From: Shigella phage pSb-1
Reading direction: 5' to 3' (one strand)
Sequence record: KF620435
DNA: 64,000 nucleotides
The translations under genes were made by a program, and so were the position numbers. The notes under the pieces were generated by a model. The model was not told the origin of the DNA and did not search any database. It saw only the letters and a program-made list of their open reading frames with translations. Positions 1 to 39,206 of this stretch are shown piece after piece (the first letter of the stretch is position 1; every line of letters begins with the position of its first letter).

Positions 1-198
1 TGAACGGAGTACCTACCGGAATCTGACCTAACACCTGAAGACGATTCACTTCGTTAGCAATGGTGTCATAAATACCATTCTCACGTTGTTCGTGAATGGT
101 GTGGAGTAAGCCACGATTCTGATAAAGAGCATCTTTACTGGCAGCATCCCATGTCGAGCTAATAACACCTAATGTAGCTTGTCCTTCTTGAGTAGACT

Positions 199-954
199 TT
201 AAGTCGTCAATTTCGGTTGCAAAATCTGCTTCGGTGTCTGTAACACGGTGTTTGCCACCTGGTAATTAATTTCCTCATCAGGATTAAAGTCCAGAGGATC
301 TGTACCAGAGTCTTTCAACAACTTTTTAATGGCTTCGGGATTCTTCTTATCCAGGTCAATCAGGAAAGAAAGTTTTTCCTCATCCATTAAACCGTTGTTC
401 TGTAACATCAGCATTACCTTACGGTACGGCTGAAGTTCTTGCATCTTACGAGTATAGTTAGCACCCATCTGCATCAGGCTAATGGCCTCCTCCGGTGAAC
501 GGGGAGTAATCATTTTGCCGTTAGCTTTAAAAGGAGCCATCAACTTCTCATAACCTTCCTTATAGTTGAAGTCAGCAGGCAGACCTTCAGACTGTTTGCC
601 TTCTTCTTTCTGTTCCTGGCCTGGTTCAGCAGTAGAAGGTTCAGCTTTAGTAATCGGCTCACCGTTACTATCAACTTCTGTGTCAACAACTTTATCATCA
701 ACTTTATCAGAAGTTAAAGAATTTGCTGAATCATCTTCAACTGGTTCAGTCTCAGGGGAGGTTTCTTCGGTTGGTAGGTCTTCAACAGCAGAGGTGTCAA
801 CTTCTTCATCAGGAGTCTGTACGCCGTTGGTTTCTGGGTTGTTCTGAGTGGAAGTATCTTCCTCAGCAATAATAGCTGGGGCTTCCATATTCAGAATCTC
901 ATCATCCGACATTGCGAGAATGTCGGAAGCTGTGGTTGCAGCTTCCGTAGTCAT
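199..954 (-). CDS. acidic late protein (scaffold- or virion-associated?); frame-linked to a partial ORF running off the window start
   Basis: 251-aa ORF, Glu/Asp/Thr-rich low-complexity N-terminal half; sits downstream of portal in late block. Confidence 0.4.
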   Translation of the reverse strand: MTTEAATTASDILAMSDDEILNMEAPAIIAEEDTSTQNNPETNGVQTPDEEVDTSAVEDLPTEETSPETEPVEDDSANSLTSDKVDDKVVDTEVDSNGEPITKAEPSTAEPGQEQKEEGKQSEGLPADFNYKEGYEKLMAPFKANGKMITPRSPEEAISLMQMGANYTRKMQELQPYRKVMLMLQNNGLMDEEKLSFLIDLDKKNPEAIKKLLKDSGTDPLDFNPDEEINYQVANTVLQTPKQILQPKLTT

Positions 955-973
955 AGGAAATATCTCCGGTTAA

Positions 974-1318
974 TTATTCGTCTTCAGGTTCAGCACGAAC
1001 TGCGTCGAGTTCTTCTTCTACCTGTAGAATAACGTCAGCTTCATTCTCACCCATACGAATGGCAAGGTCGAGCCAACGACGTAAGTGACCAGCAGCTTGA
1101 GCCATGTTCAGTGCATCTGCACGGTTATTAGGTTCAAGCAGTGGGTCACCAGACTCCTGCACGTAACGTGCACAATCTTCTACACAGAACTGGCGAAGGA
1201 TTACTTTACGGAACAGTGGATTCTCCAGAAGTTTACGTACATCTTCTGCGTGTGCAACTGCACCTTTAGCAGCTTCCAGTCGATGTTCCAGTCCTGCGAT
1301 TGTTGATTCTTTACTCAT
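974..1318 (-). CDS. hypothetical late protein
   Basis: 114-aa ORF tightly packed between portal and acidic protein genes. Confidence 0.4.
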   Translation of the reverse strand: MSKESTIAGLEHRLEAAKGAVAHAEDVRKLLENPLFRKVILRQFCVEDCARYVQESGDPLLEPNNRADALNMAQAAGHLRRWLDLAIRMGENEADVILQVEEELDAVRAEPEDE

Positions 1319-1331
1319 GTGAAGGTCTGCC

Positions 1332-3602
1332 TTATAGGTTCATACCAAGAGCCGATGCTGGGTCTTGGCTAGGGTCATAATACTGGGAACTGAGTGAATA
1401 AGTCGGATCTTGCTGTGCAGCTAAGTCACGTTCCTGTAAAGAGTTCCCGTTAGTCAAAGCGTTATATCCGACAGCAGCAGATATGTTGGGGGTAGTTTCA
1501 CCTTCTTTAGTAGGTGTTGTCAACGCCTTAGTTATTTGAAGGTTCTGGTTTCCTTGAGATTGTGCTTTTTGTTTTTCCATATCACGAGCATGTTTAGTAC
1601 CAGATTCCTGTTCCAGATAATCCAAATCTTTGAGGTCACCACTAGAAGCTGCTTCTTTAGCCTTAGCCATATTGAGTGCAATCTTACTTTGTAACTCTTC
1701 ATTCTCAAGCTGTGCTTTCTGAATTGCCAATTGCTTAAGCTGTTCTTCCATAGGGTCTGGCTGTGGTTTCCAGGTACGTAATTCATGAGCAAGGTCTGGC
1801 ATACGTTTAAGTTCTGCAATCTTAGCTACAAGAGATAACGTAATAGTCTGATCAACTGTATTACCTAACGTTTGAACCATGAAGCTCAGGTCCTGAGATT
1901 TCTGGTTATCAATTTCAGCAGTATTAATATCAACCTCAATATCGAAGTTACCTTTAAGGTCTTCACGGTTAATTTCTACATACTGCTCATTAGTAATACG
2001 TACTACTTCTTTCTCAGATAAGAACACAGCATTCATTGCACAAATCTTAGTACCAATGTCTGCCATACCCTTAGCTAATCGACGAAGGATTGCCATCTCA
2101 CGTTTGGATGCTGCATCGAGTGCACCACGAATACCAGCAGCCACATCTCCGTAAGCTGCACCAGTTACACCACCAGAGAATGCTTTAACACCGGTTAGTG
2201 CTTCAGCTTCCTGGTTCTGCATCTGAGTCATCACTATTGCTGACTGAGGTAACTCAGGGAACTTGTGTTCCATAATGGCCTGGCTAGGATTACCCTGCAT
2301 TGGGTTATACTCATAGTCTTGCCCGTCATCATATCGACGTCGATTCAGAGTATCTAACATCCCTTTAGGGTAACCACGTTGTCCGTTTGCACTTCGACCT
2401 AACAGGTCAATCATCCCACGCATAGTTGCACCAAGAATTGCCTGGTTATCACCTAACAGCTCAGCATCAGCTTCACCAAAGAGTTCACGTTTACGGGGCA
2501 TGTAGGGAACAACTACCAAAGGTAACTTACCATCCGGGAATGGGTTCTTCTCCATACGAATAAGGGTGGAACCAATCCAGGTAGCTACAATTGGTTCCAG
2601 TGAACCATCATCATTAATGTCGTAAAATCCCCAGTATTCATAAGCAACAACTTTCTTACGAAGTGCATCCTTAAACTGGAAGTCACTAGGAGTTTTACTC
2701 TCATGGTCTGGGTCAGTCATAGGACTAGAACTTTCCCAGTCAATCTTATCCAGGTTGTGATAACGGTCCTTATTCTTCATTAGGTCTGCTTTGCAAGTCT
2801 CAAATGAGATAACTGCATACAGAGCCTTATCCAAATCGCCATTACAGCTTGGGTCAATAACTACGTTATTAGGGTTAAGCATTTCAACAGTAGGTCTGTT
2901 AACCAGTGCCTTCTCTATCTCTACCTCAGTAACTCCTGTCTGGATTGCATAGGTAGCTTCCCCAGTTTCATTGAAGTAGTTAACAGCTTCCTTAATATCT
3001 TCCGGCATCGTTTCGTCATATTCACGGGGATTCTCTGCCTGAAGCTGTAAAGCCTGCTGAAGAATATCTGCTTGTTCCTGGTTCTCAATTGGATACAACT
3101 GGAAGACCGGAGTTTCTGTTTTAATCTTAACAGTCTTACGTTCCCAACCAATGCGAGCAATACCAGTACCATCATCCACGATACTATGTACGTAATCATC
3201 CACCAGTTTTACTTTATTAAGCTGGGTACGGAATTGGTAGTTAAGAACTAATTCATTCTGACGTGCAGCTAACTCATCCTCAAAAGTAACAGGGGTTACC
3301 TTAAAGAGTTTGTTGGATGAGAGGAATGGTTCAGACAATGGTGCATAACGCCATTCTGCCTGACGGCGAACCAGTCTAGGTTGGACTTGTGAACGTCCTT
3401 TAACCTTTGGGGGTTTAGCCTTACCTTTGACTTCCATCAGGTCATTCCACTCACGAATCTGTGCCATGATTGCATCGTGAGCAGGTTTAGCAGATTCCAA
3501 ATCACCCTTGAGTAATTGGATACTTGGTTCCTTCTTCCAATCCGTTAATTTCTCTGATTGAGCCGGGTCTGGTAAAGGCTTAAAAGTGTCTTGGTGTTCC
3601 AT
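1332..3602 (-). CDS. portal protein (N4 gp59-like)
   Basis: 756-aa intact ORF in late block; size and position match N4-like portal; no specific motif read. Confidence 0.55.
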
Positions 3603-3604
3603 AG

Positions 3605-4132
3605 TTATTCCTGTTCAAAAAGTTTACGGTCAGCCTGAATCTGTTTACCCAACTCAATTAGTTGGCTGTCACGGAGTCTAACAGTTGCCCTGAGTTCTTC
3701 AACCAAACGTCTGCCTTCTTCAAGACTGTTGTCGAGTCTGGCTGCATGGCTTGCAAGACTTCTGCACTCAAAGGTTCCGGCTTCGGCTTGACGTTTATAT
3801 ACCGATGCTCGTCTTTCAGACTGTTGCATCCGGCTGTCATAATCACTGCTAACGCGAGCAAGCTCGCTTGCGTAATTACTCTCAGCCGTCTGCAACCGGG
3901 AAGTAAGTAACCCAACTTCATAACTATGGTTTCTTTGGAGAGCATTGTATTTGTCCTGTAATTTTTGTATTGCCTTCTGATCTTCAATCTTTTGGTCATC
4001 CCACTTCTTTTGAACAGTAGACTGTCCGTTGGAATTACCCCAAAAGTAAATGGTGGCCCCGAGGACCACCACCAGAAGATAAGGCCAACCTTTAGAGATT
4101 AGCATCTTCATTACATGCCTCCAGCGGCACAT
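3605..4132 (-). CDS. i-spanin (Rz-like)
   Basis: N-terminal TM segment ([16 protein letters not shown]) followed by long coiled-coil; contains embedded out-of-frame lipoprotein ORF. Confidence 0.6.
3658..3921 (-). CDS. o-spanin (Rz1-like lipoprotein) embedded in i-spanin gene
   Basis: alternate frame inside Rz; signal peptide with lipobox ([12 protein letters not shown]); start chosen at internal Met. Confidence 0.5.
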   Translation of the reverse strand: MKLGYLLPGCRRLRVITQASLLALAVIMTAGCNSLKDEHRYINVKPKPEPLSAEVLQAMQPDSTTVLKKADVWLKNSGQLLDSVTAN

Positions 4133-5291: not shown

Positions 5292-5415
5292 AATATTACC
5301 GTAGTTATGTAGTTAGGAATCCCGATAGGGTTGTATCATAAGATGACTCCTAGATAATACTTAGTATGATGGAGTACATCCAGACATAGTGTCTGGTATT
5401 AACTACGAGGTAACT

Positions 5416-6042
5416 ATGTCTATTAAAGATATTTTCCAAAGTGGTAGGGATGTTGTATGCAAAATGAAGGGTGGTTTGTTGGTCGTGGGAAGTTATGGAG
5501 AACGAATAGTTTCTGCTAATAATATCTCAGAGCTTCCACCAGAACTGCTACCCATCCCACCAACAGAGTTAGAAGATACTTTCCTTCTGGACTTGTATAC
5601 ATGGACTGGGAACCAAGCAGTAAATGATCAGTCCTGGTTCAATTACTTTTCATTACCAGGGATAACTAAATCACCCGGAGGTACAGCAGCCTTAACTATT
5701 GAAGAGGGTAATCTTAAGTTCCCTGTCAGAACCAGGAATACCCAAGTAATGTTCAGTGTTCGTATCTCGGGAACTATTGCAGGGGGTGCTGGTACAGCCA
5801 GGGAATGGAGAACACAAACAAGACGAATCAATGGAACTACAGTAGTAGGTTCAGACGCTAGTGTTAAAGTACAAGGTACGGACATTGCTAACAGAGATAA
5901 CGTACTAGCTACTTACACGCTTGGTTCAATGGACCCTTTCATGGTAGACGGTATTCAGTTGGGTATGCTTAATATCTCAGGACAAGTGATCACCTTAACA
6001 GCAGTATCGGTTAGGGTAATGCAAACTGTAAACTCCATATAA
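5416..6042 (+). CDS. hypothetical protein encoded opposite to the late block
   Basis: plus-strand ORF with GAGG RBS, flanked by divergent intergenic region (5292-5415) and convergent hairpin terminator. Confidence 0.45.
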   Translation: MSIKDIFQSGRDVVCKMKGGLLVVGSYGERIVSANNISELPPELLPIPPTELEDTFLLDLYTWTGNQAVNDQSWFNYFSLPGITKSPGGTAALTIEEGNLKFPVRTRNTQVMFSVRISGTIAGGAGTAREWRTQTRRINGTTVVGSDASVKVQGTDIANRDNVLATYTLGSMDPFMVDGIQLGMLNISGQVITLTAVSVRVMQTVNSI

Positions 6043-6066
6043 AAAGTATTATTAATAAGTAAAAAC

Positions 6067-6086
6067 TAACCCCGCCGAAGCGGGGT
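6067..6086. terminator. bidirectional hairpin terminator (AACCCCGC-CGAA-GCGGGGTT)
   Basis: GC-rich 8-bp stem; T-tract on minus strand side; sits between convergent genes. Confidence 0.6.
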
Positions 6087-6094
6087 TTCAAACA

Positions 6095-6559
6095 TCAATA
6101 AAGCACTTCCCATTTACCGTCTCCGGCTGAGAATAAGGTAACAAACTTACCTGCTTGTATCGTTTTTGCCGATGATATATTTATGTTTCCACCAGGCTCT
6201 AGAATTAAAGTATTAGCGGTATCTGCTCGCAGCATAACTTTTCTCCCCCGTACATAAGCACCAGAGTTTTGTATGGTTATATTGTTTACGTCTGCCGCTC
6301 CGTTTATTTGAATTATATCTCCAGCTGAGGGTATGCTTAGGGTGGCGCCGGATGCTGACACTCGTGAGTCGTTCATTGGGTCCCATCGGGTTACGTTGTT
6401 AGCAATGATAACCCTTCTACTCTGTGTAAAAATATCATCGGTAATACCAACCGAATTGCAGTTGTTTCCGGTGACAACAACATCATAGCTATTAGGGTCA
6501 ATTTGGATGGCGTACTTCTGACCGCCTCCACCACCTTTAAAGCTACCGTTAGAAACCAC
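6095..6559 (-). CDS. tailspike, C-terminal fragment (frame-broken continuation of 6571-7638)
   Basis: GTG-initiated ORF whose frame is open upstream into the preceding ORF; frames differ by one base. Confidence 0.4.
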   Translation of the reverse strand: MVSNGSFKGGGGGQKYAIQIDPNSYDVVVTGNNCNSVGITDDIFTQSRRVIIANNVTRWDPMNDSRVSASGATLSIPSAGDIIQINGAADVNNITIQNSGAYVRGRKVMLRADTANTLILEPGGNINISSAKTIQAGKFVTLFSAGDGKWEVLY

Positions 6560-6570
6560 TATGCCTTTAC

Positions 6571-7638
6571 TTAATCCGGTGAACGCATATCCACCAGTAC
6601 CTTGTGGACCAATACTTCAGCTTGCAAATCAGCTGGCGATTTACCTTTTAGATTTCCATGAGATATGAAACCGCTTAACGTGAACTCTTCACACGCATTA
6701 ATTTCAAAGCCTAACCACCCATTAGAGTGCGATATATCACCATTTGAACTTGAACTACGGCAGTCCCCAAAATCGAAACCAACACCAGTGTTGTTATACG
6801 ACACATTGCCCGTCGACGTTATAAACGTGCCATTATAAAGCATTCCCTGGTGTGACGTTGTTGTGCCGTTGTTATAGCTTCTGTTGTTTGAAACTATTGA
6901 GTGAGACGTCTGGCAAACAATACCGTTTTGACCGTTGTTATGAGACTTGCACTCGGAGATCAATACCTGGTCAGCTACCGGTGTCGACGAGTTAGTGATG
7001 AACTGAATAGTAATTCCGTTTCCGCCGTTATCATGCGCATGAACTTTCGATATAGTGACTGGCGAGGTAGTAAACGTAGCGTTAGATAGCACAAGCCCGT
7101 CAGAATACGCGGATTGAATTTCGGTGTCCTTTATAGTTTCACCGCGAACATTTCTCAGGTAGATACCATAACCAGAGCGAGTGCCGTCAACTAAACAGTT
7201 AGCTACCGTGTTACCACCGCCGACTGGGGTATCGCGTATTGTTATGCTGTGGCCTCCCGAAGCCTTTGATACTACACGGTCCAGCACAACACCTGTGCGA
7301 CCATTAATCATAATGTTATTGGCAGCTGAAGAACCGGACGTTCTTGTTCCATCTATAGTTACATTTACAATCCTTACGGAGTTAGTATTGACTTGTATTA
7401 AGTCTTCAGTTGTATCACTTTTGCGAGAAATGAACCCAGGACCAAACACATCGCATGTAACACTGATGGTTGTTACTTTATATTCAATATTTGGATTTAG
7501 TTTTACAAAAAAACCATTTGTAGTCGCATAGTCTATTGCTGTCTGCAATACGTCCTGATCTGATAATGATGACCGTCTAAAAATCTCAGGATCAACGCCT
7601 GACATAAAATAGAACCTTGGGATTATTTCACTTCGCAA
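6571..7638 (-). CDS. tailspike / tail fibre with right-handed parallel beta-helix repeats
   Basis: repeated [11 protein letters not shown] / [11 protein letters not shown] / [10 protein letters not shown] type motifs typical of pectate-lyase-like beta-helix. Confidence 0.5.
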
Positions 7639-7751
7639 TGAAGCATCACCAACACTAACCCACTTACCTAACCCAGTACCCCCAGCACTTTCAGGAGTTG
7701 AACCGGAAGAAACGATTTTAGGTAACTCACCCTCCCAGCGATACTTACCTC

Positions 7752-8111
7752 CTATATGATAAGTAGTTCATTTTTAGCATTAAGGGTAGCACCTGTATCA
7801 AATGATCCAGGTAATGTAACGTATTCTTCTCGAGATACGGCTAACTCCCCAAGGTCTACAGAACCAGCTGAATGTACAAGTACAGCATTAGCACCAAGAC
7901 TAACAGCAGTAGTACCTGGGGCAATACCAGCAGGTAGTGAATAGGATCTTTGCGTTTCTTTGTCATAAATGACTTTATACCCACCTAAATCTACGCCAAC
8001 TGAGAAGTAAACAACCTCAGACTGTTTAACACCAAACCTACGGGCAATGGCTTGTTTATTGGTAAGAATACCAGTAGAGCCTTTACCACCTTGTGAGAAC
8101 ATTTCGTTCAT
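7752..8111 (-). CDS. tailspike N-terminal fragment (frame-linked to 6571-7638)
   Basis: 119-aa ORF; downstream ORF frame open across the junction with a 1-nt offset. Confidence 0.35.
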
Positions 8112-8161
8112 AAGAACCTCTTTGTTTTTCTAGGAAACCCCTCCGAAGAGGGGGTTGTTTA

Positions 8162-8479
8162 TCAAGCGTAACTTAATTCAACTACAGCACCAACGCCAAC
8201 AGTACCTGTAAAAGTAATAGTAAGGTTGCTAGAGTCAGCTGCAATTGCAGTTACAACTGCTGCTGCTGCACCACTACCTACTTGAATTTGATTATCAAGC
8301 TTACTACTTACTACAGTATTATCAGCACACATGAAAATAGCACCTATTGCTAATCCATTACCGTTGGTGGTTTTAATACGCAAGAACTCTACTAAGGTAC
8401 TGCCAGTCTTGTTGAAGTTAGGGAACACTTCTTTAATGCGATACATAGGTATCTGGATAGTAGTACTGGGACTAGCCAT
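8162..8479 (-). CDS. hypothetical tail-associated protein
   Basis: 105-aa ORF in tail gene cluster. Confidence 0.3.
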   Translation of the reverse strand: MASPSTTIQIPMYRIKEVFPNFNKTGSTLVEFLRIKTTNGNGLAIGAIFMCADNTVVSSKLDNQIQVGSGAAAAVVTAIAADSSNLTITFTGTVGVGAVVELSYA

Positions 8480-9341
8480 ACCAACTTAGAATAGGGGATG
8501 AGTATGGGGAACCTGTAGCACTTGGAGTAGTAGTATAAGAGGGAGCCGATGCTCTTCCTTCCTGCAAAACACCATCCCTGTATCTACGAATTGCCCCACC
8601 GATACCAAGTTTTACATCAAGATAATTACCAATAGTACATACTGATTGTGGAACACCTTTAGAAGAACCATTCCAATAATTACTAATATCGATTTCTACA
8701 ACATTATCCGAACCAGTGACATTAGCAAGTCGGTACTTCTGAGTCCTGAAACGACCACATAGCTTAACAATAGCCCCGGTAGTACCCTTCACTACAGCAA
8801 CATAGTTAGTATTATCAGTAGTATCATCGTAAGTACTAAGGTAGGCATCAACTACCCCACCATCAACGTTGATGTATTCTACCGTAGCGTATTCTGCACC
8901 TAACGTACCTGTAACATTAGAATTGATAAATGTATAAGAAGCTAACGTAGCATGGTCTACAGCAGCCATAGCAAAGTTTGAGTAGTCTACGCCGTTCAAA
9001 TAAAAACCAGAACCACCCGGTGAATTAGCGTAGTACCCATCAAACAGTAGACTGGTAGCGGATTGTGCATCTGCAATAGGTACTCCTTCAGCATTTGTAC
9101 GTGTACCATCATAGAAGCAAGAGTGGGAAATAGTATCATTGCCACGAATGTCTTTGTGTGTTCCACGCCATGCATTCTTACACCAGATATCATATAAACA
9201 TCCACGGAAATTTATATTCTCTGTGCTGTAATTAGTAGCACTTGGGATGTAAATACCAACTGGACGGTCACCAATGGGAGCCTCGTTACACCAAATATCT
9301 ATGTTCTTAATTTGGAAGTAACGCACGGTCTCAGTGGCCAT
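8472..9341 (-). CDS. tail fibre/appendage protein, C-terminal fragment (frame-linked to 9428-11062)
   Basis: frame open upstream to 9467; junction at C5 homopolymer near 9436-9440. Confidence 0.4.
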   Translation of the reverse strand: MATETVRYFQIKNIDIWCNEAPIGDRPVGIYIPSATNYSTENINFRGCLYDIWCKNAWRGTHKDIRGNDTISHSCFYDGTRTNAEGVPIADAQSATSLLFDGYYANSPGGSGFYLNGVDYSNFAMAAVDHATLASYTFINSNVTGTLGAEYATVEYINVDGGVVDAYLSTYDDTTDNTNYVAVVKGTTGAIVKLCGRFRTQKYRLANVTGSDNVVEIDISNYWNGSSKGVPQSVCTIGNYLDVKLGIGGAIRRYRDGVLQEGRASAPSYTTTPSATGSPYSSPILSWYG

Positions 9342-9427
9342 GAATACGCAGTTAATGTTAGCAGGAGCATACCCACCAAAAACAGGTATTAAAGAAGTAA
9401 TGCCTGATTTAGTGGATGTTCTTTTTG

Positions 9428-11062
9428 CTACACGACCCCCTGATAAATCAATTTTAAAGTGGGAACCTTAAGTAGTATGGGTGCATCAATCACAAATCTC
9501 TTACTTGAGTCTGCGGAAAAGATTCGGTTGAGGGAGTTAAACATTCTCTGGAATGCATCGGAAGAATCAGCAATACCTGTTGTGTCATCCCCGGTATAAG
9601 AGATTGCACCAAAATCTTCTACAGTAGCATTATTGGTATCTACCCGTTCCCAATACCAGTTTGAATTTACTGTCGCAATCACCCCACCATCATCGTCTGG
9701 TACTTCAGACATACCTGTAGTAGAACGAGCAATAAATTCACCACCACCAGTATCACTATTATCATAGTACCCAGACAAAAGGACACGTGCACCAGCTGAA
9801 GGTGGAACCAAAGTTCTTAGAGCAGCGAATGACTGCACACGTCCGATATTGGTAAAGCCAAGAGGAGAATTTAAACTATTTTCTAAAGTCTCCAAAGCAG
9901 ACAACGCTTCACTAGGCATTGGCAATAGGTCAACTGTGATATTCCCTGGTGAGTAAGTTAACTGACCGTTGGATACAGAATTGATATAAACGTTAGTAGG
10001 TAGAGTAGGAAGACCATAAATCTTCTGCCCTACCACATCATATATGACCTTCATACCATTCAAATACTGAGTGGTATTCGTACTCAGAATAACATCATTC
10101 TCATGTACGTTAGCAGAACGAGCTACTTCCTGAACAGTACGGTCAGACATAATGAGCGTAGTGGATTCACCACCAATCTGAATAATCAGACGGTCATTAG
10201 TAGCTAATGGCTCAGTTAATAGGATACGTTGGTTAGCAGCATCAACCGCATAAGACTTGTCTGCTAAACCTGCATAATAACGTTCGCCATTCTTATAGAT
10301 AGCCGGTACAGATTCAAATGTGTAAGGAATAGCAATTACTTGCTCACCACCTGAAGCATACCCACCGTTGTACAACCAGTTGATCTGAACCCAGTCAGAT
10401 ACATTAGGATTATCAGGAACTGCTGGAGTACCAGTCAGGAACAGGTGTACTTCATCACCTGGTTCTAATGGTTGAGCCAGAGTAACGGTTAGTGTAGATG
10501 CATCGTAAGTAAAACCATAGCCAACTAAGTTGGTATAGCCATCAATTACAATCATCGGTACACCAACCGTACCAGCAGGCACTGGGATAGTGGTTTCACC
10601 ACCGATAGCAGAACCATTATTATATGAGTATGGAATGTATGGAGGTGATGCTTTACCTTCGCCGTCATCTCCACCACTATCTGAATTAGAAGTGGCAACC
10701 AGAATCCAGGAACCAGTAGCGGAAGGGTCATCTGGAATTACACCTGTACGGTCACCTTCTACATACAGATAATCTGTAACAACTCTTTTATTGGTATTGT
10801 CAAAACCATACAGTCGTACATAAGATGCACTGGTAGGTATGGCCTTCAGTTCAGTTTCTGATTGAACACCTAACACCATTCCATATTTATTTAAGAAATC
10901 ATAAATGAGTTTGAGGTTACCTAGGTTGCAGTACACAGTACGAACCACATGGTAAGCATTACCAAGTAATGCATCTACCATTGGGTCATTGGAACTGTTC
11001 TGGCAGTAAGGATTGGTCCAATCCTGCTTTGCATCAAAGGGGGTATGTGCGTTCATCGCCAT
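9428..11062 (-). CDS. tail fibre/appendage protein, N-terminal part
   Basis: 544-aa ORF, Gly/Ser/Thr/Asn-rich, position in tail cluster. Confidence 0.45.
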   Translation of the reverse strand: MAMNAHTPFDAKQDWTNPYCQNSSNDPMVDALLGNAYHVVRTVYCNLGNLKLIYDFLNKYGMVLGVQSETELKAIPTSASYVRLYGFDNTNKRVVTDYLYVEGDRTGVIPDDPSATGSWILVATSNSDSGGDDGEGKASPPYIPYSYNNGSAIGGETTIPVPAGTVGVPMIVIDGYTNLVGYGFTYDASTLTVTLAQPLEPGDEVHLFLTGTPAVPDNPNVSDWVQINWLYNGGYASGGEQVIAIPYTFESVPAIYKNGERYYAGLADKSYAVDAANQRILLTEPLATNDRLIIQIGGESTTLIMSDRTVQEVARSANVHENDVILSTNTTQYLNGMKVIYDVVGQKIYGLPTLPTNVYINSVSNGQLTYSPGNITVDLLPMPSEALSALETLENSLNSPLGFTNIGRVQSFAALRTLVPPSAGARVLLSGYYDNSDTGGGEFIARSTTGMSEVPDDDGGVIATVNSNWYWERVDTNNATVEDFGAISYTGDDTTGIADSSDAFQRMFNSLNRIFSADSSKRFVIDAPILLKVPTLKLIYQGVV

Positions 11063-22912: not shown

Positions 22913-23707
22913 ATGCAACTGTTAACCGCTCGTGAATACCTGAAAGTAGATATTGCTAATAACTATGGCTTAGATAAAAAGACATGGGATGAACGTATTA
23001 GCTGGTTCGATGAGAATGAAGCTAACCTGCTTAATCTGGTAGATGAAGCTGAAGATTCTGCTCTGTTCTTTGCTGGTGTAAATGCATGGAAAGATATGAA
23101 AGCCGGTAAGCCTATTGGTTATGCTGTAGCTCTGGATGCTACATCATCTGGCTTACAGTTACTGGCCTGCCTGACTGGTGACCGTTCTGCTGCTGAACTG
23201 TGTAACGTAGTTAACTACATGGGAGAGAATGGTAAGCCATTACGTCGTGATGCTTATACAGTCATCTACCACAAGATGCTGGACATCCTTGGTGAAGCAT
23301 CTCGTATTAAACGTAGTGACACTAAGCAGGCAGTTATGACTGCATTCTACGGTTCAGAAGCCAAGCCTAAAGAAGTATTCGGTGAAGGTATTCGTCTCAA
23401 GACTTTTGAAAATGTAATGGAAACTGTTGCTAGTGGTCCTTGGGCACTGAACAAGTTCTTACTGCAATGTGGTAACCCGGATGCTAACCGTTACATATGG
23501 GTACTGCCTGACAACTTCCACGCTGTCATTAAGGTCATGGTTCCAGAAGTACAAACTGTTAACTTCTTAGGTAAGCCATTCGACATCACTCGTATGGTTC
23601 AGGGCACTGAAGAGAAGACTCGTATGCTCTCTGCTAACATCACCCACTCTATTGATGGATGGTGGTACGTGAGATGCTGCGTCGTTGTAACTTCGACCGT
23701 GACTTAG
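22913..23707 (+). CDS. RNA polymerase II large subunit, N-terminal part (frame-broken)
   Basis: T7-RNAP motif A (LDATSSGLQLLACL) and motif B (RSDTKQAVMTAFYGS). Confidence 0.8.
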   Translation: MQLLTAREYLKVDIANNYGLDKKTWDERISWFDENEANLLNLVDEAEDSALFFAGVNAWKDMKAGKPIGYAVALDATSSGLQLLACLTGDRSAAELCNVVNYMGENGKPLRRDAYTVIYHKMLDILGEASRIKRSDTKQAVMTAFYGSEAKPKEVFGEGIRLKTFENVMETVASGPWALNKFLLQCGNPDANRYIWVLPDNFHAVIKVMVPEVQTVNFLGKPFDITRMVQGTEEKTRMLSANITHSIDGWWYVRCCVVVTSTVT

Positions 23708-26114: not shown

Positions 26115-26321
26115 ATGGCAAGCATTGACTCCTTGACCGTATGTAATTCACGTCAAGCTCGTAACTTTATTATCCGTGCCCTAAAAGCAGGCAACGTACC
26201 GTTCCTGACTTCATCACCCGGCATGGGTAAATCTGCAATCATTCGTTCTATTGCAGAAGAATTTGGCATGAAGCTGATAGACCACCGTCTATCTACTTCT
26301 GCCCCGGAAGACCTTAACTAA
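26115..26321 (+). CDS. AAA+ (MoxR-like) ATPase, 5' exon-like segment
   Basis: Walker A SSPGMGKSAI; ORF stops right before HNH ORF; Walker B lies 0.9 kb downstream in another frame. Confidence 0.6.
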   Translation: MASIDSLTVCNSRQARNFIIRALKAGNVPFLTSSPGMGKSAIIRSIAEEFGMKLIDHRLSTSAPEDLN

Positions 26322-27192
26322 TAGGGCTTTGTGGGGGTGACCTCACATCGAAAGCTATCTAAATGGGGAAACTCCTACTATTACAGGGAAACCATGATAC
26401 ACTCTGGTTTCCCAATAGAGGACAATCCCATGCTAAATATTAATGAAAGTTGGAAAGACATTGTTGGTTATGAAGGTTACTATGAAGTCTCTACGCATGG
26501 TCGCGTTAGAAATACCCGTACAGGTATGATAAAGAACCAATGTGTACAGACTAGCGGTAAGTATCTACAAGTCAGTTTGTGGAAAGGCAACAAAGAAAAA
26601 AGATGTTTAATACATCGCTTAGTTGCTATAGCCTTCATTCCTAACCCTGAAGACAAGCCTCAAGTAAACCATTTAGACAAAAATGATAAGAACAACCATG
26701 TTCAAAATTTGGAATGGGTAACCATATCCGAGAATCATTTACATGCATTTGCTAATGGTAGAAAAGGCTCCAAATCCCGACTAGGTGAAAAAACTAGTAA
26801 AGCCTCTCAGTACCGATATGTGTACTGGGATACCAAAAGAGCTGTTTGGAAAGCATCTATAAAGATAGATGGCAAAACAGTAAACATTGGTAGATTCAAT
26901 ACTGACCTAGAGGCAGCTTTAGCCGCTGATGAGGCAATTGATTCCTGGGGCTGGGATAGAATTAAAAACTTTCAATAATTAAATGCCTAACGACTATCGA
27001 AAACACGTAGTGATACGGAAGTGAGTAGAGTAGGGTGCAAGCCAATGGCACTCGAAAAGATAGCCACCCGGACAGGTAAAGCTGAGGGTGTTGATATAGT
27101 CTGGTCTGCGTAGTAATACGTAGCTGTATATGTCCAACTCGCATATACGGGTAGAGCCTTGCAAACTCTACTGAACATAACGTAGTGGTCTG
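26320..27192 (+). mobile_element. putative group I intron carrying an HNH homing endonuclease gene, interrupting the AAA+ ATPase gene
   Basis: ATPase Walker A and Walker B separated by about 870 nt containing HNH ORF plus about 200 nt non-coding; boundaries approximate. Confidence 0.45.
26331..26978 (+). CDS. HNH homing endonuclease (NUMOD4 + HNH + AP2-like)
   Basis: GYEGYYEVSTHGRVRN, VNHLDKNDKNNHVQNLEWVTISEN, AP2-like YRYVYWDTKRAVWKASIKIDGKTVNIGRF. Confidence 0.8.
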   Translation: MGVTSHRKLSKWGNSYYYRETMIHSGFPIEDNPMLNINESWKDIVGYEGYYEVSTHGRVRNTRTGMIKNQCVQTSGKYLQVSLWKGNKEKRCLIHRLVAIAFIPNPEDKPQVNHLDKNDKNNHVQNLEWVTISENHLHAFANGRKGSKSRLGEKTSKASQYRYVYWDTKRAVWKASIKIDGKTVNIGRFNTDLEAALAADEAIDSWGWDRIKNFQ

Positions 27193-28035
27193 CCATTCCG
27201 TAATGGTGACCGTGCAGAGTTTATTCCATTCGCTGACTTATTCCCTATTGAAGGGGATGAAGTACCAGAAGGATATAACGGGTGGCTCCTGTTCCTTGAT
27301 GAGTTCCCATCCGCTCGTAAAGAAGTAATAGCTGCTGCATACAAACTAATTCTAGACCGTATGACAGGTCAGAAAAAACTTCATCCTAATGTGATGATTG
27401 TCTGTGCTGGTAACAAAGCTACTGACCGTGCCATTGTTAACCCGCTAGGCACTGCAATGCAGTCTCGTGTGGTCCATTTTGAAATGGAACTTAACTTCGA
27501 CATCTTTGTTGAAGACGTAATGATTCCTCAACAATGGGATGAACGTCTGGTTGCATTCTTACATGCTAACCCTGGTTATCTGCATGACTTCGACCCGGCC
27601 CATAAGAACAAAACATTCTGTTGTCCTCGTACTTGGGACTTTGTTAATAAAGACCTCAAGAACCAGCCAGAAGGTGCTCTTCCTGATGAAGATTCCATCT
27701 ACTATGCAGGTCACGTTACTGCTGGTAAGGCTACAGAATTTGTTCAGTTCACTCAGGTATATAATCGTATCATTACGATTGAAAAGGTAGTCAAAGACCC
27801 ACTGGGCTGTGCACTACCGGAAGATAACAACCTGTGCTGGGCTACCGTTAACCATCTGGCTAACAAAACTACTGAAGAGAACTTTGTTGATGTTCTTCAG
27901 TACATTGAACGCTTTAAAACGTTCACCCATAAGATTCTGTACTTCCGTACAGTAGGCAATGCATTACCAGATCTTCAGGCTACTCCTGAATGGCGTAAGG
28001 CTGCTGCTAATATCTCTCGTTACATTCACGGATAA
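27193..28035 (+). CDS. AAA+ (MoxR-like) ATPase, 3' exon-like segment
   Basis: frame open from 27181; Walker B LLFLDEF, sensor MIVCAGN; ORF track starts it at 27361. Confidence 0.55.
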   Translation, partial: PFRNGDRAEFIPFADLFPIEGDEVPEGYNGWLLFLDEFPSARKEVIAAAYKLILDRMTGQKKLHPNVMIVCAGNKATDRAIVNPLGTAMQSRVVHFEMELNFDIFVEDVMIPQQWDERLVAFLHANPGYLHDFDPAHKNKTFCCPRTWDFVNKDLKNQPEGALPDEDSIYYAGHVTAGKATEFVQFTQVYNRIITIEKVVKDPLGCALPEDNNLCWATVNHLANKTTEENFVDVLQYIERFKTFTHKILYFRTVGNALPDLQATPEWRKAAANISRYIHG

Positions 28036-38762: not shown

Positions 38763-39206
38763 ATGTCAGATATTATCACCCAAACCAAAAAATGGTTTGA
38801 AATCGCAGTACCAAATCCGACGAGTAAGAACATTAGTACCCAGATGGGTTGCCATCTGGAAGAAGTAGAAGAAATGCTTCAGACCATTTATCCAAATGGT
38901 ATCTACGATGCAGAATTGCTACAACGTGCGCAAGATGCTCTTACAAATCTGGCAAATCATATGAAGCGTAAAGCTGATGCCTACCGTATTGATGTTAGTA
39001 CCGACCTGCTGGACTCACTGGCAGACCAGATTGTTACAGCAACTGGCGTCGGTACTTTCCTTGGGATGAATGTCCCCGGAGCATTGGCTGAAGTCAATCG
39101 CTCAAACTATTCTAAGTTTGAAGATGGCGAACCTGTCTTCAATGAGAATAAGAAAGTTATGAAAGGGAAAGACTACACTCCCCCAGATTTAACCCCTTAC
39201 ATCTAA
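38763..39206 (+). CDS. MazG-like NTP pyrophosphohydrolase (tentative)
   Basis: acidic HLEEVEEM ... DLLDSLADQ pattern resembling ExxE...ExxD. Confidence 0.35.
   Translation: MSDIITQTKKWFEIAVPNPTSKNISTQMGCHLEEVEEMLQTIYPNGIYDAELLQRAQDALTNLANHMKRKADAYRIDVSTDLLDSLADQIVTATGVGTFLGMNVPGALAEVNRSNYSKFEDGEPVFNENKKVMKGKDYTPPDLTPYI

Follow-up and report, generated by a model that had tools for sequence, protein, structure and literature searches.

Genes at the start of the window

The window, that is, the whole stretch of 64,000 nucleotides of Shigella phage pSb-1 that was analysed, comes from an N4-like phage of the genus Gamaleyavirus (Schitoviridae). Near its start, the portal protein gene (1332..3602, minus strand, 756 aa) serves as the anchor for the order of the head-assembly genes; portal products of identical length carry the PF23899 (SU10_portal) assignment. 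It is followed by a gene for a conserved 114-aa protein, phrog_2346 (974..1318, minus strand). The latter separates the portal gene from the one considered here, which is designated 'gp57-like' after its homologue in phage N4.

At the window start itself, two minus-strand reading frames are found. The first is an ORF of 251 aa (199..954), acidic on computation. The second is shifted by one base (-1) with respect to the first; it reads ...STQEGQATLGVISSTWDAASKDALYQNRGLLHTIHEQRENGIYDTIANEVNRLQVLGQIPVGTPF and exits at the window start, and its translation is LPGGKHRVTDTEADFATEIDDLKSTQEGQATLGVISS...IPVGTPF. The original prediction had described an acidic ORF at 199-954 and, one base apart, a minus-strand frame open from 196 to the window start. 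The acidic character and the one-base offset were borne out, and the second frame exists; its opening, however, lies at 265 and not at 196. It thus comprises 88 codons (LPGGKHRVTDTEADFATEIDDLKSTQEG...) and overlaps the end of the first ORF by 67 nt (265..199).

The downstream frame had also been said to lack a start codon. It contains no ATG and no TTG; apart from two GTGs (49..47 and 34..32), neither of them preceded by a Shine-Dalgarno-like sequence, nothing in it resembles a start codon. A start codon with a ribosome binding site of its own, which would have spoken for a separate downstream gene, was looked for and not found.

Projected onto the gene of related phages, the region can be divided as follows. 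Codons 1-232, in the native frame and beginning with the ATG at 954..952, occupy 259..954 on the minus strand, as delimited by tblastn and the PHROG profile. The missing-base site is at 258..259, in codon 233, where the coding (minus) strand has GG (CC on the plus strand) and relatives have GGG. From 258 down to 199 on the same strand, the translations show an out-of-frame tail of 19 unrelated codons (VANTVLQTPKQILQPKLTT) closed by a TAA at 201..199. The gene continues in the -1 frame over 1..257 (minus strand), where tblastn places the rest of codon 233 and codons 234-318. The last 88 codons, 319-406, fall beyond the window start.

A single 406-aa gene in related phages

Among phage records, 67 matched the first 3.7 kb of the window over 80% or more of its length, the best identity being 96.3% (ZQ2, ECBP1 and Bp4). 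As no reference genome of more than about 96% identity to the window turned up, the pSb-1 record itself is not part of the phage collection that was searched. Neither E. coli complete genomes nor plasmids yielded a match to the window start, and the view that a phage contig had been misfiled among bacterial assemblies was rejected on this ground. In ZQ2 and ECBP1, one annotated coding sequence of 1221 nt (406 aa) covers both window frames, and the gene order is portal, 114-aa gene, 406-aa gene, major capsid (major head protein). The same succession was encountered in all eight independent metagenomic contigs that carry an identical 114-aa neighbour: the 406-aa gene comes next, then the capsid gene. 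The proposal of one larger gene made up of both frames is therefore upheld by both annotated relatives and by 8/8 contigs.

The correspondence was located by tblastn with the ZQ2 protein, gp35. Residues 1-232 matched window 954..259 at 98.7% identity, and residues 233-318 matched 259..2 in the adjacent frame at 100% identity. The link between the two frames is not a matter of chance, since the reading is fixed by homology and not by the length of an open frame. The second frame had been presented as a partial late gene in its own right; it turned out to encode residues 233-318, the middle of the same gene.

Family membership was assessed with PHROG phrog_2120, a profile of 403 positions. The window ORF alone matched only positions 2-230 (E = 1.9e-77), and the ZQ2 orthologue matched positions 2-401 (E = 4.4e-146). 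Among the best 119 of 4182 homologues, lengths ranged from 381 to 437 aa, with 99-100% of the query covered. Both the whole-profile match and the conserved position place the gene in phrog_2120; the single uninterrupted ORF of about 400 aa that members have is broken in the window by the deletion at 258-259. We interpret the broken ORF as an error of the record and not as a sign of non-membership. On the strength of these alignments, window 1..954 (minus strand) is read as the first 318 codons of one conserved homologue of N4 gp57. The feature is thus an already known conserved gene, interrupted in the pSb-1 record.

Annotation of the locus in pSb-1

By protein-cluster look-up, the 251-aa window ORF is exactly YP_009008411.1/AHB79428.1 of Shigella phage pSb-1 (71,629-bp record); an exact look-up of the same ORF among assembled contigs gave no match. 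BFVD contains a second pSb-1 protein, of 99 aa, whose identity with the C-terminus of the gp57-like family is 100%. Its presence there implies that the pSb-1 record annotates the gp57-like gene as two fragments, and the two pieces indeed stand as separate database entries, V5UQF2 (251 aa) and V5UR79 (99 aa).

These entries are what speaks for taking the annotation at face value, as a 251-aa acidic protein followed by an independent downstream late gene. Judging from its length, V5UR79 would start at the internal GTG at 34..32. This call needs a start codon without a ribosome binding site, in a frame that has neither ATG nor TTG, and about 75 conserved codons (window 258..35) then go without annotation in the pSb-1 record. 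As all relatives have a single ORF, we regard the existence of two separate genes as highly improbable.

One missing base

In a three-way DNA alignment, the relatives read TAC CAG GGT GGC AAA where the window reads TACCAGGTGGCAAA. The coding strand has thus changed from CAGGGT to CAGGT (plus strand 258-259), and this one G is the sole length difference in the alignment, as expected if the two frames are one gene. The run of G is two bases long in the window, and three in ZQ2, ECBP1 and the metagenomic loci matching the search pattern. Each of the 54 phage records with a match to window 150-400 is longer than the window by exactly one base over this interval. In a 26-sequence family alignment, the deletion falls in codon 233, flanked by the invariant residues Y231/Q232 on one side and G234/H236 on the other, and the 19-codon tail that follows it in the window has no counterpart. 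As a consequence of the loss, the called ORF ends at 199, after 19 junk codons, and the true coding sequence runs on to the window start in a register shifted by one base.

A programmed -1 ribosomal frameshift, or another kind of recoding, could in principle join the two frames and yield a short and a long product. The 67-nt overlap and the direction of the needed shift would suit such a mechanism, -1 being the common direction for phage recoding. However, the overlap (265..199) holds no X XXY YYZ slippery heptamer, and the only XXXYYYZ in the whole ORF, at 531, lies upstream of this overlap and has a phase that does not fit. The two-frame layout is not conserved either: every relative examined has a single in-frame ORF, and the break falls among invariant residues of a continuous alignment. 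It is, moreover, one of many indels scattered over the record (see below). With no slippery site and no conservation of the layout, programmed frameshifting was rejected, its probability being close to nil.

Another explanation is that the sequenced stock carried a real one-base deletion, and made a truncated 251-aa protein without the C-terminal 174 residues. The sequence at 258-259, taken by itself, is the same for a true deletion and for an error. Short homologues are also encountered: P0120, of 246 aa and 61% coverage, is among the matches listed, and another 246-aa member, from a 1200-bp contig, is in the cluster list. A truncation would, on the other hand, remove the highly conserved residues 240-331, the most confidently folded domain of the predicted structure (pLDDT 83-92), as well as the invariant C-terminal motif NPLxMSDEDFxKLP. 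It would do so in a core gene: the Schitoviridae have 17 core proteins, and the N4 gp57 homologue, under the label 'tape measure', is among them (PMC7650795). The deletion is shared by none of the 54 phage records, none of the three aligned relatives and none of the eight contigs, each of which has the intact 406-aa gene. An exact-pattern scan for the deleted form returned 0 matches in viral, metagenome and genome contig collections; no independent occurrence of it is thus found in any of the three. Considering also the indels described in the next section, we deem a real mutation unlikely, if the least improbable of the alternatives to an error.

One-base indels throughout the record

The whole window was compared with ZQ2 and is collinear with the reverse strand of that genome. 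At window position 23473/23474, the two ends of the ZQ2 record, which is linear (positions 1 and 72231), come together; with respect to ZQ2, the pSb-1 record is thus a circular permutation that runs across the terminus.

Among the 72 ZQ2 proteins with a match in the window, 12 map to more than one frame, and the cause is isolated one-base indels. In coding sequences of the window, these amount to 16 deletions and one insertion, located mostly in runs of two to five identical bases. Besides the deletion at 259 in the gp57-like gene, the ZQ2 comparison placed indels in a virion structural protein (11292), the large terminase TerL (13056), the homologue of ZQ2 gp17 (16851), subunit A of RNAP1 (17779), an RNAP subunit (23656), the thymidylate synthase ThyA (32045) and SSB (48478). 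The virion RNA polymerase (vRNAP) has three breaks (60676, 56289 and 52618), the helicase two (39460 and 39546), and the homologue of ZQ2 gp75 two as well (28490 and 28553). The exonuclease carries the insertion (45109). Apart from these 12 proteins, the homologue of ZQ2 gp54 has a deletion at its beginning (43982). Comparison with a second genome, St11Ph5, recovered eight of the indels, all between window positions 39,000 and 61,000, at unchanged places, which indicates that they are specific to the pSb-1 record.

The pSb-1 genome (NC_023589) has been reported to be without a full-length vRNAP, this gene being split into three ORFs (PMC10654107), and pSb-1 itself is a plaque-forming lytic isolate (PMC4789750). 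Such an isolate cannot carry frameshifts in its terminase, vRNAP, helicase and SSB, and we therefore consider the indels to be an artefact that extends over the record. The same reasoning weighs against a real deletion in the gp57-like gene, as the 16 or so further one-base indels in essential genes cannot all be real. A later phage from the same laboratory as pSb-1 was sequenced on an Ion PGM, which for pSb-1 is circumstantial.

We conclude that an error of sequencing or assembly most likely accounts for the G missing at 258-259, which belongs to a set of about 17 one-base indels in the window, and that a biological truncation or a recoding signal at this place is unlikely. There is a minute chance that GG is the true sequence and that the protein nevertheless functions, either made in full length by non-canonical -1 recoding in the 67-nt overlap or working as two pieces; if so, pSb-1 would exhibit a strain-specific split of a core head-assembly gene.

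An error in the record makes the finding a quality flag for one public record, pSb-1 (NC_023589), and its biological significance is small. In NC_023589, one-base indels break up the gp57-like gene together with at least eleven more conserved genes. Fragmented genes inflate the ORF count and create spurious 'hypothetical proteins', and they can make core genes seem absent from pan-genome analyses of the Schitoviridae.

Other features of the window

Three further regions were singled out in the window. The first is an insertion of about 868 bp (26316-27183), which is absent from ZQ2 and splits the homologue of the ZQ2 gp76 ATPase into two exons (26115..26315 and 27184..28032) by comparison with ZQ2. 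The insertion carries a 215-aa ORF on the plus strand (26331..26978), in which YEVSTHGRVRN and NHLDKNDKNNHVQNLEWVT are what we take to be putative homing-endonuclease-like motifs. An Rfam group I intron match at 26834-27123 is below threshold (26.8 bits for a gathering score of 50, E = 1.7e-4). We take the insertion to be a probable group I intron that carries a homing endonuclease.

The second region contains a 175-aa Rz-like spanin ORF (3605..4132, minus strand), inside which a 113-aa ORF (3658..3999, minus strand) is embedded in another frame. The embedded ORF has a lipobox-like LAVIMTAGC, and the two are arranged in the same way as an embedded Rz/Rz1 spanin pair.

The third is the tail fibre/tailspike region (~5400-9950), where the alignment with ZQ2 is reduced to short patches of 79-86% identity, compared to 90-96% elsewhere. 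This patchy identity suggests that the receptor-binding module at ~5400-9950 may have been exchanged, which would be consistent with a Shigella boydii host.

Architecture and possible function of the gp57-like protein

An AlphaFold model of the protein was built on 26 homologues; its mean pLDDT is 58.7. The acidic N-terminal third is disordered in the model (residues 26-125), and the pI of residues 1-125 is 4.05. There follow a helical region (131-216) and a low-confidence linker (223-236), which holds the frameshift site, and then the helical domain 240-331, modelled with confidence (pLDDT 83-92). Towards the C-terminus, a basic stretch (340-383) is disordered, residues 341-406 having a pI of 10.2, and a short conserved helix lies inside the NPLxMSDEDFxKLP motif. 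Apart from two three-residue strands at 142-149, the model consists of helices and disorder.

In the gp57-like family, similar, near-invariant short motifs are present at both ends of the protein: ASDILxMSDDEILNM (ZQ2 residues 9-23) and NPLxMSDEDFxKLP (residues 388-401). The N-terminal copy is found at window 928..884, and the C-terminal copy is off the window. The two could be copies of one partner-binding peptide.

Database searches with the gp57-like protein gave no Pfam match at E ≤ 0.1, no match to PDB sequences by phmmer or profile searches, and no fold match when the model was run with Foldseek against the PDB (best E = 1.0). BFVD returned family members only, labelled 'tape measure', 'coil containing' or uncharacterised. 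As to the protein in particles, analysis of N4 virions did not identify gp57, and the LIT1 homologue was represented by one peptide (3% coverage, compared to 82.7% for the capsid protein; PMC3715699). A proteomic study of crude particles counted the 'tape measure protein' among particle-associated proteins, beside clearly non-structural ones (PMC11927229). According to the 2024 structural paper on phage DEV, a scaffolding protein of N4 is yet to be identified (PMC11445570).

The gene position, the composition, the mixture of helices and disorder, and the fact that gp57 was not identified in N4 virions together lead us to propose, by a modest preference, that the gp57-like protein is a putative scaffolding or assembly protein. 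Such a protein would bind coat, portal or both during procapsid assembly, and would leave before or during DNA packaging. It is the obvious candidate for an N4-type scaffolding protein; a 'tape measure' is implausible for a podovirus, and the name 'tail length tape measure protein' is probably a misnomer, passed on between annotations, in a short-tailed phage. For the reading of a single gp57-like gene with a base lost by likely error, we estimate a probability of about 90%.

Comparison with known systems

The closest relatives of the window gene are N4 gp57 and its orthologues in the Schitoviridae, such as YP_010659972.1 of ZQ2 and YP_006908834.1 of ECBP1. Over the 318 codons present, the window gene is 98.7-100% identical to that of ZQ2, and it shares the place after the portal and 114-aa genes, with the capsid gene lying beyond the window start. 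It differs from its orthologues in that the pSb-1 frame is broken at codon 233; its last 88 codons are off the window.

With tail length tape measure proteins, the gp57-like protein has in common the label, in PHROGs and RefSeq, and a largely helical make-up. Tape measure genes, however, are situated between those for tail chaperones and distal tail proteins, whereas the gp57-like gene is in the head module. Tape measure proteins also carry tape-measure domains and belong to the tail module of long-tailed phages, whereas the gp57-like protein, of 406 aa, has no Pfam tape-measure domain, comes from a short-tailed podovirus and was not found in N4 virions.

The class of scaffolding proteins, represented by P22 gp8, T7 gp9 and phi29 gp7, offers a closer parallel in organisation. 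No similarity in sequence or fold to the solved scaffolding proteins could be detected, whether by sequence, profile or fold searches of the PDB, so that homology to a characterised member is missing. The gp57-like gene nevertheless adjoins the major capsid gene on its upstream side, within the head-assembly module, and it lies 3' of the portal gene and 5' of the coat gene, as the scaffold genes of this class do. Its product is likewise acidic, helical and partly disordered, and elongated on the AlphaFold model, the mean pLDDT of which is 58.7; like the scaffolds, gp57 was not identified in mature virions of N4. The gp57-like protein also has a C-terminal helical motif after a flexible linker, and the scaffolds of P22 and T7 combine a comparable gene order with C-terminal helices that bind the coat protein.
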